Source: a phage
DNA length: 64,000 nucleotides
Strand: one strand, 5' to 3'
Sequence record: NC_101837.1
Shown here: positions 39,261 through 52,652 of the stretch, piece by piece
Numbering within the stretch: position 1 is the stretch's first letter
How the letters are laid out: each line of letters starts with the position of its first letter
Notes under the pieces: generated by a model
Databases searched by the model: none
Seen by the model: the letters and a program-made list of their open reading frames with translations, nothing else
What the model was told of the DNA's origin: nothing
Translations under genes and position numbers: made by a program

Positions 39261-39288
39261 TTGACATTCTTGCCTATCTTGATAAAAT
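39261..39288 (+). promoter_or_regulatory. sigma70-like promoter with no ORF downstream
   Basis: TTGACA, 16 bp, TAAAAT; downstream 250 nt is purine-rich and non-coding. Confidence 0.45.
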
Positions 39289-40663
39289 TAAGTTCTTCTC
39301 TTTTCTTTTACCGAGTAATTCGGGTTTTCTGTTCTCTTCGGTTTGAAGGGGTATGGAGATACACCTGAGTGAACAGGGTGAACAACCGAACCTTTGGCTA
39401 TGGCATTAGCATGGCGAAGCGGACGGGTGACGAAAGAGGGGCCGGAGGACACCAGTCACTGCCATATGATATATGGGTGATAACCTGAAGAGTCTGAATA
39501 AGTGTTTAAGTACCAGTCAGAGGAAAAGGTGAATGGTAGCCGAAGGGGGATGGGGGGTTTCTTGTATCTTTAATTTGTATATTATGTATACACTTGTAAA
39601 CCAATCTCATCTGAATCTGTTTACCACACAAAGCGGATAGAGACAAATATCACCTATTAAACTTGAATTATTTATAGAAAATACCACAACACCAATTAAG
39701 TCTTTGATTTTAAACACAAATCCTACAGATATTCAACCTCCATATTTAACATACTCGTAACATATTCCATACTCTACCTGTCTGATCAATTTACCCAACT
39801 ACATCCCCATATTTTCCCTGTCTGTACTACCCCATCCCCGCCGGGAGTCCCGTCATATCTGGCTTTCCAGCAAATATCACACCCACAAATATCATTGCCT
39901 GAAGAGGGTTTCATCCCATAATACATGCCTTACATGAAGAGCGCTTCATACACCACGTAAATTTTTTAATTGACCTCCCCGCCGCCGGAGAGGTTGGCTT
40001 TTCCCCACACAGACCTGAAGAGTCAGCCAGAAATATCTGAACAGGTCCAGTTCTGCCTTGTCATGAGCCGTAGCGACTGGAGTGCTGCCAGGCGGACGGA
40101 ATGGGAATACTTCTCATTCTTATAATAATTCTCAAATATCGAGGCAGTGAGGCAAATTAATAGGTGAGGCCGTTCACACAGTGGCACAACATTTGCAATC
40201 TATTTTGTGGGGGTGAATGAGAATACCTATCATTGTGAGAACTGTTATCATTACGGGCAATTTAACATAATACCCATTATGCGCACCACTGGCGATCCAT
40301 ACAGGGATTGATAACATGAGTTACAGTTTACGCATATAACAATCATATTTCTTACTATTTGTGTGGGATATAGTTAGCAGCCGATAGATTAGATATTGAC
40401 CTGTGGACTTCCAACCGTCTAGACGTCTAAACGCCCACACAACAAGGATTATACATACATTACTGAATGTAAACAGGGCCGCAAAAATGCTACCATACCA
40501 GTTTGTAAATTTTTCATGCAGCACTTGACAAAGAGAGGAAAAACTTGTCTGACATGCTGGGCATACTTCACACCTTAAACATACTCAACACTGGATACAA
40601 TAACAATTGTTACTATTGCATGCCTCACTGTTCACGTATAGACTATTTGCTCAAAAATGATAA

Positions 40664-40955
40664 GCCATGCCATTCGTTTGCATGATAACAATAACGATCA
40701 ACAACAATAAAGACTGAAATGATAACGTTGTTGATTTGACTGACTAACAATTAACAGGCTAATAATCTATGACATAATATAAAAGCAGGGCAACTATTAG
40801 CAGATCTATAGTTGCCTTGCTTGTTATGTCATGATTAACTAAATACAAGGCAACTATGATCTGATTAATAGTTTGCAGACAAACTATCACGGGGGTGATG
40901 GTTACTGCTTTTATATTATGTCGCGACTCCGTCGCGCCATGCCATTCGTTTGCAT
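40664..40955. repeat. composite repeat: 20-bp direct repeats flanking 18-bp inverted repeats and iteron-like motifs
   Basis: GCCATGCCATTCGTTTGCAT at about 40664 and 40936; GACATAATATAAAAGCAG (40771) and its reverse complement (40905); AAGGCAACTAT-like motif in both orientations between them. Confidence 0.5.
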
Positions 40956-41616
40956 AGTTGCCTTATTGTTACAGATAAAATAATTGTATTGTTAATTATT
41001 TCTTATCTTTCTATTAGTCATCTAATGATTCCAGTTAGTATAGTAACGTACAGTAAACATTAGACGACTAAAGATTTCTCTGATTATGATAACTTGCCGT
41101 GACAATTTCAGACTGTTTACGAAAAATGTTGACACCTGAGCTGATTTATGTTATGCAATTTAAACGAATAATTATTTTATGCAGGTATTGACTATTCTGT
41201 TATCCTATGGTCGGAATAAATACTTAGCAGGCTATAGAATGGTGAGCGTACGTAAATTCTGAGATCTGTCGGCTATAGTTATACTCGATTTTTCACGTAG
41301 AACACGCTTTTTGGTTTGTGTAAGTGTATGACTTATAAAGATTTTTAGTTGTTGACAAGATATTGAAGATGTGCATCAGGTTAAATTTTGTGCAATAGCT
41401 GCATTACGTGCAATTTTGGAAGGAAAACGGGTAAAAATAGCACCGCTACCACACAATGAAAGGTTATGCAATAGTTATTTTACATGTATATTTGTACAGT
41501 GTGTGGGATTGATGGCTCGTCAATTATTCCACTTGCCAGGTAGGGCCGTTTATGGTAGGGAGGAAGAGCAGACAAAAAGAAAGGGACCTAAGCCCCTTGA
41601 TAATTCAGTTAAAAAA

Positions 41617-51639: not shown

Positions 51640-51895
51640 TTTTGTACCTCCTCTTCAATTGTTTACCCTACAGTATGGGCCTACCAGGTTTGCAAGATTT
51701 CACCCTCTCCCACCTGGTCAGTTAGGTCCTGCCAGGCTGGCCCCGCCAGGTTGCAGCGGTTAGCGCATCAGGTTAGAAAAATTTTTTGAAAAGTGTTGAC
51801 AGCGGCCCCGACAGGTGGCACAATATACCTATCGAAAGGACGGCAGGCACCGGTGACGGGGGAGACAACCACCAGGGATGGGCGCTGCATAAAAT

Positions 51896-51914
51896 GAGAA
51901 CGGTTATCATTATC
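51896..51914. promoter_or_regulatory. Fur-box-like sequence (site 1)
   Basis: GAGAACGGTTATCATTATC, about 16/19 to reverse complement of Fur consensus GATAATGATAATCATTATC. Confidence 0.3.
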
Positions 51915-52031
51915 ATTTAAAAATTTATGCAAAAAATCCTTGCTTTCTTTGTCCTGTGTGATACTATAATAACAAGCCGGGGCAACAGGGGCCGGGAGAC
52001 AATCACCGGGCCTGCCCGTTATTCTGCAAAC

Positions 52032-52050
52032 GAGAATGATTATCATTCAA
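52032..52050. promoter_or_regulatory. Fur-box-like palindrome (site 2)
   Basis: GAGAATGATTATCATTCAA; core AATGAT-T-ATCATT is a perfect 6-1-6 palindrome matching Fur-box core. Confidence 0.35.
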
Positions 52051-52161
52051 GATTCTAAATGAGAACTCCTCGCATTTAATAAATTTAATTAGCACGCTAA
52101 TTACCCTCCGTAACAATTTACTATAAAATAGTATCCACTAAAATATTCCCATATAGAAATT

Positions 52162-52340
52162 TTAAAAATCCATTTCTGAAAACGAAAAATCGATTTCGTC
52201 CCCAAAAATTTCAGGTTGAGAGCCGGAACGATTTCCAGAAAATCCGATTCAGAAAACGAAAAACAGGTCGAGTACTGAGAAATTTATCGAGAAAAATTTT
52301 CAGAAAATCCAAGCCCTGAAATGAAAAGTAGATCGAGTAC
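52162..52340. repeat. degenerate tandem repeats (about 65-bp period)
   Basis: CAGAAAATCC...AGAAAACGAAAAACAGGTCGAGTAC and CAGAAAATCC...TGAAATGAAAAGTAGATCGAGTAC plus a third degenerate unit; GAAAATCC motif recurs to about 52610. Confidence 0.45.
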
Positions 52341-52652
52341 CTGGAAAGCTGCACCGCAACTTCAAGATAGCGGTTAGATTGTTACCATAGAAGGTCAAGG
52401 GTAAGTGGAGGAAGTTCTAGTAGAGGGAGGTTAGCATGTGTGGGAAATCTATAATGGTGGCCTGGAATATGGTGCAAACGATAGGATGAGTTATTCAGCT
52501 TGTCGCGCCTACTCTGAAAAATCCATTTTAGTTTTCGATCCATTTTCTGATTTTCTAAGAATTTTAAAATATCCAGCCCGGTGAAATATCAAAAGGAGGA
52601 AATCCATTTTAGAAATCCCCCTTATACTTGATATGCCAGGAATTTTCAAGTA

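Follow-up and report, generated by a model that had tools for sequence, protein, structure and literature searches.

The phage sequence record NC_101837.1, analysed here as a single window of 64,000 nucleotides, carries in a gap poor in open reading frames (ORFs) a set of 19-bp palindromes, arranged as 9-1-9, whose consensus is AATGAGAATnATTCTCATT. Comparison with known operators and with related genomes gives good support to the view that these palindromes are conserved copies of a DNA site bound by the iron regulator Fur. They stand in phased arrays within an island of tandem sigma-70 promoters, and we lean, with moderate confidence, towards the reading that they serve as operators of the host Fur protein that gate transcription by iron. 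On the sequence evidence, a lytic phage of E. coli probably reads, or soaks up, the iron regulator of its host. The window belongs to the genus Vequintavirus (rV5-like myoviruses); the 1.5 kb around the boxes share 99.6% identity with phages nomine and HdK5 and 99.5% with phage CarlMeissner. The gap, which the sequence-only reading of this DNA had correctly recognized as intergenic and had taken to be 1.1 kb long, extends over 1.0 kb (51640-52652) and is flanked by small genes on the minus strand. On the map of CarlMeissner the DNA polymerase gene lies ~8 kb upstream of the gap, which falls within a long operon carrying rIIA/B, helicase and primase, and the promoter-like sites of the box island are oriented opposite to this replication/early operon. 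The island is an unannotated regulatory hub.

Two Fur-box-like palindromes had been pointed out in the gap from the letters alone, and both were found where they had been placed: no other sequence in the 64 kb is as Fur-like as site 1 (GAGAACGGTTATCATTATC, 51896-51914) and site 2 (GAGAATGATTATCATTCAA, 52032-52050). The match of about 16/19 that had been given for each holds for site 1 when compared with the 19-bp E. coli Fur consensus, whereas site 2 reaches 15/19; the latter does include the perfect palindrome ascribed to it as AATGAT-T-ATCATT and seen here as GAATGAT-T-ATCATTC. Site 1 is the sole match in the window with three mismatches or fewer to the 19-bp consensus, where 0.02 are expected. 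A crude scoring matrix built from 11 published Gram-negative Fur boxes scored the two sites at 20.2 and 17.4 bits, ranking them first and second in the window, against maxima of 13.4 ± 2.0 bits (mean) in shuffled sequence. A better register lies 3 bp to the left of both sites, at which the 9-1-9 boxes 51893-51911 and 52029-52047 match at 16/18 and 17/18 positions. The sequences agree with the 19-bp form of the consensus (GATAATGATAATCATTATC) as well as with its 7-1-7/9-1-9 form (aaTGAtAATnATTaTCAtt). A repeat finder detected the 20-nt box repeat independently, as three copies of AAATGAGAAnnnnTnnCATT at 51892, 52028 and 52057. Allowing up to three mismatches, AATGAKAATNATTMTCATT has five matches in the window compared with 0.25 expected, all of them in the gap or at 40100-40252, and seven in the complete genome of CarlMeissner (137.6 kb; 0.45 expected), six of which are in the same two non-coding regions. 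The boxes therefore occur far above chance and in non-coding regulatory DNA.

Fur boxes are textbook bacterial operators, and Enterobacterales, to which all hosts of the phages considered here belong, possess Fur, so that a cognate regulator is present in the infected cell. Exploring published operators, we found that the phage consensus AATGAGAATnATTCTCATT coincides in every letter with the Fur-box consensus of Xanthomonas campestris (AATGAgAATcATTctCATT), which was derived from Fur-regulated TonB-dependent receptor genes and was aligned in the same paper with Bacillus and Shewanella boxes. It also contains TGAGAATGATTCTCA, which along with TGAGAACGATTCTCA is a box carried by Enterococcus faecalis operons that are derepressed in a fur mutant. 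The boxes of X. campestris, E. faecalis and Bacillus subtilis (9-1-9/7-1-7) belong to the iron-uptake genes of these bacteria themselves, whereas the hosts of the phages are Enterobacterales, for which the textbook optimum is GATAAT rather than GAGAAT. The closest E. coli counterpart is the aerobactin operator (iucA, pColV-K30), whose box GATAATGAGAATCATTATT agrees with the first phage box at 14 of 15 aligned positions outside the centre; given that it also has the G of the phage boxes, this departure from the GATAAT optimum does occur in a listed E. coli Fur box. Both operators display the near-identical core AATGAGAAT-n-ATTAT, dyad symmetry and several sites in a row, and like the aerobactin operator, box 1 of the window has overlapping registers 6 bp apart (51893/51899). 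The aerobactin sites, however, are contiguous and overlap the promoter they repress, while the phage boxes lie 55-80 bp past start sites with a fixed period of 29 bp, in a virulent phage and with no iron gene adjoining. An exact scan of bacterial genomes (one genome per species) for the perfect palindrome returned at least 120 matches, where arithmetic based on uniform composition predicts ~9, and the genes nearest to the matches sampled include fur, feoB and those for a TonB-receptor plug, an Fe2+ transport protein, a siderophore-type periplasmic binding protein, a ZnuA-family protein and a FecI-like sigma factor. The published consensuses, these bacterial iron-gene neighbours, the conservation across genera and the lack of a phage Fur (both below) support the Fur-box identity that had been suggested, and do so beyond what the letters alone could tell.

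The boxes are conserved well beyond the genus. A sensitive DNA search showed that outside Vequintavirus just ~60-100 nt around box 2 can be aligned, at 72-88% identity, in Seunavirus, Mydovirus, Certrevirus, Henunavirus, Phapecoctavirus and the unclassified phage W70, which infect Cronobacter, Salmonella, Klebsiella, Proteus, Enterobacter, Pectobacterium and Erwinia. In these genera the boxes are always found in a large gap within an array of small genes on the opposite strand, and the layout is common: a promoter (P_A) with a GC-rich segment, a second promoter (P_B) with a GC-rich segment of 55-58 nt that carries the invariant GAGACAAnCACC, the boxes, and AT-rich repeats of 65-75 bp. The arrays hold one to four boxes, the first of which has 0-2 mismatches in all genera sampled and is always positioned at about +55 to +75 from the predicted start of P_B/P2. 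Of 27 pairs of neighbouring boxes, 22 have starts exactly 29 bp apart and five deviate (31, 37 or 38 bp), while the 10-nt spacers between boxes differ in sequence. The first box and the 29-bp phase are thus kept across genera, as in a phylogenetic footprint, and changes within the genus are compatible with Fur. Several substitutions within Vequintavirus shift boxes toward the consensus: a G-to-A change in three relatives brings the left box of box 1 closer to it, box 2 is perfect in phage YN3, and box 3 of rV5_ev147 (AATGAGAACTTTTCTCATT) has just two mismatches. The right-hand overlap of box 1 is absent in five of eight relatives. The second box cluster, at 40100-40252, is kept in CarlMeissner, and a Mydovirus-like contig (L048) likewise carries extra boxes ~10 kb from its main array. 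A DNA search found 109 phage records that cover most of the 1.5-kb box region. About 16-18 records labelled "Campylobacter phage" are near-identical to the rV5-like phages of E. coli and are probably mislabelled or contaminant assemblies. The segment from ~51733 to 52160 is almost invariant among Vequintavirus genomes; just left of this conserved island, 51640-51730 is hypervariable in the genus, with large indels and many substitutions.

Promoter-like hexamers had been noticed next to the boxes, and two promoters, P1 and P2, were located there (Table 1). P1 is invariant in eight Vequintavirus genomes save for one base of the -10 and is similar to P_A, which comes first among the tandem promoters of other genera (W70, CR8). 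P2 is the orthologue of P_B, in which the hexamers hold their position and the spacers diverge; its equivalent in phage GAP31, TTGATC-16-TATTAT, was scored by a promoter scan. The scan found three tandem plus-strand promoters around the boxes of GAP31, and four sites in all compared with 1.1 expected. The third of these promoters, P_C (TTGACA-18-GAAAAT with TG), starts 17 nt past the last box; in Seunavirus and Mydovirus, 16-18 nt separate the end of the last box from the -35 of P_C. The weak site at 52117-52144 of the window may be the counterpart of P_C. P1 and P2 each head a unit, and the two units align over ~150 nt comprising an A/T tract, a promoter, a GC-rich core and a box. By their alignment the two units are true duplicates, as had been claimed, but the repeated module, said to be of ~60 bp, measures ~140-150 bp with a period of 134-136 bp. 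The GGGAGACAA(C/T)CACC cores were also detected independently as a repeat at 51860 and 51994. In phage AlexBoehm a 134-bp deletion has left a single unit, made of the left half of unit 1 and the right half of unit 2 joined at GGGAGACAA. The 5' arm of unit 1 (GGCAGGCACCGGTGA, 51845-51859) and the 3' arm of unit 2 (TCACCGGGCCTGCC, 52004-52017), 145 nt apart, are perfect complements of each other, and the AlexBoehm deletion joins both arms into a 14-bp hairpin (-38 kcal/mol, z -5.5; L137 2070-2115). The GC-rich segment of unit 2 folds by itself at -27.4 kcal/mol, with z of -2.7 on the plus strand versus -0.85 on the minus strand. Short transcripts from P1 and P2 are likely, since folds of the plus strand are favoured in most sequences and the promoters are conserved. 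Repeat sets analogous to the AT-rich direct repeats that follow the boxes were seen in every genus examined, and these repeats could be elements of an origin or related to silencing.

Table 1. Coordinates of the box island and of related features (positions in the window unless a contig is named).
Feature	Position	Strand	Sequence	Remark
Promoter P1	51796-51824	+	TTGACA, 17-nt GC-rich spacer, TG-extended CACAAT	10/12 match
GC-rich segment, unit 1	51843-51890	+	core GGGAGACAACCACC	own fold weak, z -0.35 to -0.57
Fur-type box 1	51893-51917		AATGAGAACGGTTATCATT, 16/18; overlapped 6 bp rightward by AACGGTTATCATTATCATT	contains site 1 (51896-51914)
Promoter P2	51940-51967	+	TTGCTT-16-TACTAT	weak by consensus, conserved across genera; predicted start ~51974
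GC-rich segment, unit 2	51977-52018	+	core GGGAGACAATCACC	candidate RNA hairpin, terminator or DNA site
Fur-type box 2 (B1 of the family)	52029-52047		AACGAGAATGATTATCATT, 17/18	overlaps site 2 (52032-52050); ~+55 to +73 from the P2 start
Fur-type box 3, degenerate	52058-52076		AATGAGAACTCCTCGCATT, 14/18	exactly 29 bp after box 2
Weak third promoter-like site	52117-52144	+	TTTACT-16-TAAAAT	
Iteron-like direct repeats, 65-74 bp	52152-52347, also 52519-52612		AAATCCATTTCTGAAAACGAAAAA...TCGAGTAC	AT-rich DNA directly after the boxes
Second box cluster	40100-40252		40100 AATGGGAATACTTCTCATT; 40216 AATGAGAATACCTATCATT; 40234 TGTGAGAACTGTTATCATT	in the 2.2-kb ORF-free convergence region
Box clusters in other viral contigs	L013 2215-2751; L007 5708-5945; L040 983-1127; L068 1976-2113; L103 11037-11669; L119 5019-5228			

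Who binds the boxes was approached by searching for candidates. A tblastn search detected no Fur homologue encoded by these phages. The small plus-strand ORFs beside the island in other genera were rejected as the source of the binder, given that they fall into two unrelated families, neither of which is in the window. The HTH_36 protein bas48_0220, the sole annotated HTH protein of the genome, was rejected as well, being confined to Vequintavirus; in CarlMeissner it is a 116-aa HTH_36/DUF6945 protein (L260 37524-37874, outside the window), whose annotation varies between transcriptional regulator and, in rV5, replication initiation protein. The idea that the phages had recently taken up a host promoter was also rejected, as no similar DNA was found among 5,426 E. 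coli genomes. Given that neither a phage Fur homologue nor a co-distributed phage regulator was found, host Fur is the most economical binder, and one conserved host protein is the simplest candidate for a motif common to all these phages.

In the model that we favour, dimers of Fe2+-Fur would occupy, in iron-replete cells, the boxes ~55-80 bp past each promoter start and would block or trim the rightward transcripts of P1 and P2. Without this block, the transcripts would run into the repeat region and, as antisense RNA, into the replication/early operon; bound Fur would thereby insulate the neighbouring repeat-rich DNA and the upstream genes. When iron is scarce, Fur would leave and allow read-through, tying part of the phage programme to the iron state of the host, and the multiplying phage DNA, with its 7-8 boxes, would also draw Fur off host promoters to some degree. 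What the sequences show is the identity of the sites with Fur operators, their conservation, their phasing, their position relative to promoters and the lack of a phage Fur; occupancy by Fur, the roadblock effect and the dependence on iron we infer. Given that the boxes do not overlap the -35 or -10 elements and lie instead around +55 to +80 relative to P1/P2 and around -60 to -95 relative to the promoter that follows, the model is not one of classical promoter occlusion. Two variants are compatible with the same facts. In one, Fur would act by anti-silencing of a downstream promoter, as at E. coli ftnA, where upstream Fur sites reverse silencing by H-NS; like the phage boxes, the ftnA sites are several, lie upstream of a promoter without overlapping it and adjoin AT-rich DNA, but unlike at ftnA the downstream promoter, P_C, is not clearly conserved in Vequintavirus, Certrevirus and Phapecoctavirus, and a role of H-NS here is putative. 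In the other, Fur would repress the weak minus-strand promoter TTGAAT-18-CAGAAT, which spans box 2, matches at 8/12 positions and is not kept in all genera.

Several points weigh against operators of host Fur that gate transcription. The boxes do not lie over the -35 and -10 elements as in classical Fur repression, and to our knowledge a Fur roadblock is not an established mode of regulation and a 29-bp phase is without precedent among Fur operators. The preferred half-site of the family is GAGAAT as compared with the E. coli optimum GATAAT, and box 2 of the window starts with CGA instead of TGA. In Vequintavirus conservation extends over the whole island and is thus not peculiar to the boxes. 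A phage protein of Fur-like specificity that has escaped recognition could also be the binder. Such a protein, dimeric and with a Fur-box-like site, might control a switch from early to middle expression in the promoter island; this is improbable, even though phage repressors and activators typically have operators of this form, phased dyad-symmetric sites set between tandem promoters, the family favours GAGAAT over GATAAT and most genes of these phages are without known function. No candidate shares the distribution of the boxes, the consensus equals that of bacterial Fur boxes flanking iron genes, and clusters of the same motif are found in unrelated contigs with GC contents from 0.21 to 0.53, for which one shared host factor is simpler.

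The boxes might instead have been selected for a function in trans, as a sink: 7-8 strong sites per genome, multiplied by replication, would titrate Fur away from host promoters like a natural Fur titration assay (FURTA), and the resulting derepression of iron uptake and RyhB could feed the iron-dependent ribonucleotide reductases of the phage. One cloned box on a multicopy plasmid titrates Fur, which is the basis of FURTA, and replicating phage DNA with 7-8 boxes resembles such multicopy DNA, by which host Fur-regulated genes are derepressed; FURTA, however, is a laboratory artefact of plasmid copy number, whereas a sink selected in a phage is hypothetical. The rV5-type phages have genes for ribonucleotide reductases of classes I and III, box clusters exist in ORF-free DNA of unrelated viral contigs, and the number of boxes per array varies from one to four between genera, all of which would suit a sink. 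Yet a sink needs neither a fixed position relative to promoters nor a 29-bp phase, there are just ~7 boxes per genome, the survey of viral contigs is biased because these were retrieved by a Fur-box word, and the lytic cycle may be too brief for added iron uptake to pay, leaving titration as the principal function of the boxes doubtful. Explanations at the level of RNA appear less probable still. The units could be small RNA genes transcribed from P1/P2 whose palindromes end, process or stabilise the RNA or seed its pairing with further RNAs that contain boxes, and promoters conserved at a fixed upstream distance, single-sequence folds that favour the plus strand in most sequences, a CAUUCU/AGAAUG helix that accommodates C-to-U changes as G-U pairs, and the very stable hairpin of AlexBoehm (-38 kcal/mol, z -5.5) all fit this view. 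Rfam, however, gave no relevant match at gathering or permissive thresholds for the window, the gap or the GAP31 island, and RNAalifold on 17 cross-genus sequences yielded nine pairs (the palindrome stem and three more) at -3.9 kcal/mol, with a covariation term of essentially zero (0.09 kcal/mol) and no shared 5' hairpin. By hand, stems of differing sequence are suggested in the cross-genus alignment, which is too ambiguous for covariation to be counted. CC/GG stem swaps are uncompensated within the genus, no intrinsic terminator was found on the plus strand, and the commonest first box combines a GAGAAT half with a GATAAT half, which are valid Fur half-sites and non-complementary as RNA; a spacing fixed at 29 bp with free spacer sequence also argues for a protein on DNA rather than for an RNA.

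A replication origin, in which the phased boxes would serve, like those of lambda ori, as iterons for an initiator and the promoters would provide transcriptional activation or a primer, is very unlikely. Site arrays as regular as this one, the adjoining 65-74 bp repeats and AT-rich DNA, and a place in the replication operon that lies ~8 kb downstream from the polymerase gene are in keeping with an origin, and the rV5 genome paper could not locate the origin of that phage. Against it, no adjacent or co-distributed initiator gene was found, a second box cluster lies 11.7 kb away, and the motif is a Fur box, not a phage-specific iteron; the GC skew, uninformative in itself, is steady at 51.6-52.6 kb and changes sign only in the convergence region at 38-41 kb. 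Finally, the region is almost certainly not coding. An ORF of 92 aa spans 51768-52046 on the minus strand, and the records of CarlMeissner, Gotham and rV5_ev147 list an ORF of this size as a hypothetical protein. Its start codon, however, falls within the palindrome and has no ribosome-binding site, the AlexBoehm deletion (134 bp, not a multiple of three) crosses it and no coding sequence is annotated there, rV5_ev147 has a 1-nt deletion inside it, and other genera keep the DNA without the ORF. It was therefore rejected as a gene, neither reading frame nor translation signals being conserved, and several database records carry a spurious ORF across the island.

The second box cluster lies in another non-coding region, 39350-41600, where 2.2 kb are without an ORF, the plus-strand genes (1-39 kb) meet the minus-strand genes (41.6-64 kb) and the GC skew flips its sign. 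Upstream of the box at 40100, a P1-like TTGACC with a GC-rich spacer can be seen by eye near 39970-40000; it has a poor -10 (TTGGCT) and received no score in the promoter scan. At 39261-39560, on the plus strand, a strong promoter-like sequence (TTGACA-16-TAAAAT with TG, 11/12) precedes a GC-rich stretch of ~220 nt that looks structured, has neither an ORF nor an Rfam match and may be an unannotated non-coding RNA. The map in the rV5 genome paper shows an ORF-free "non-coding" box, which the text neither interprets nor positions; it may be the 51640-52652 gap or the 2.2-kb region at 39.3-41.6 kb. All genera other than Vequintavirus carry between P_A and P_B a conserved segment of ~95 nt, ...CGCCACCCCACGGCGAAAAGGCGGGGCTAAC...GGAAGGTGGATCGCCGGTAG (e.g. 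L004 2310-2410, L003 2375-2475), which the window lacks and for which Rfam gave no hit. Its first hairpin is terminator-like on the opposite strand, and the segment may form a pseudoknot between the loop CCCC and a downstream GGGG, both sides of which are changed in phage Hena1. A tRNA scan of the window found none.

Clusters of Fur-type boxes also occur in viral DNA unrelated to these phages. Among 120 viral contigs retrieved by the 16-mer GAGAATGATTATCATT, 56 hold two or more Fur-type boxes, a figure that speaks for the existence of such clusters and not for their frequency, since the Fur-box word biases the choice. Retrieval by the exact word gave mostly unrelated contigs, not homologues. 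Several unrelated contigs with GC contents of 0.21-0.53 carry ORF-free clusters of 3-12 boxes (Table 1), some of them beside genes for large terminase, HNH endonuclease and other phage families. One is related to Pelagibacter phages, and its cultured relative, Pelagibacter phage HTVC115P, has no boxes near terminase. It is conceivable, at the same low probability as the sink itself, that virulent phages of unrelated lineages use Fur-operator arrays as a replicating decoy, reprogramming the host by DNA alone for the supply of ribonucleotide reductase. The rV5-like phages of Enterobacterales, the SAR11-phage-like contigs and the AT-rich contigs would be examples, equally doubtful, in which iron uptake and iron sparing are switched on. 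The virulent phage PAK_P4 was reported to induce host iron-uptake genes strongly, including those for siderophore and haem uptake, by a mechanism that is not known, and the decoy reading, if true, would offer one. The link to iron had been sought in an iron-regulated outer-membrane receptor. This rationale fails, as the receptors of Vequintavirinae are the enterobacterial common antigen (ECA) and a glucose of the lipopolysaccharide (LPS) core; the class I and class III ribonucleotide reductases of the phage are a more plausible link.

The use of host regulators by phages is familiar from the PhoB and NtcA sites of cyanophages and from the Fur-regulated stx1 promoter of Stx1 prophages. As in these systems, the boxes described here would borrow a nutrient-sensing regulator of the host through its operator. 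The known sites, however, are found in promoters of identifiable genes (pstS, phoA, stx1), whereas the boxes form phased non-coding arrays with no evident protein-coding target. Searching the literature, we found no description of Fur boxes in virulent phages and no transcriptomes of this subfamily; conserved, phased Fur-box arrays in strictly lytic phages with no nearby iron gene thus appear without prior description. If Fur binds these sites, then common phages of E. coli, Klebsiella, Salmonella and Cronobacter, including therapeutically used ones, would sense or manipulate the iron state of their hosts, which would bear on the performance of phages at iron-poor sites of infection. The island would then represent a simple, testable case of a virus that uses a host regulator through DNA sites alone.

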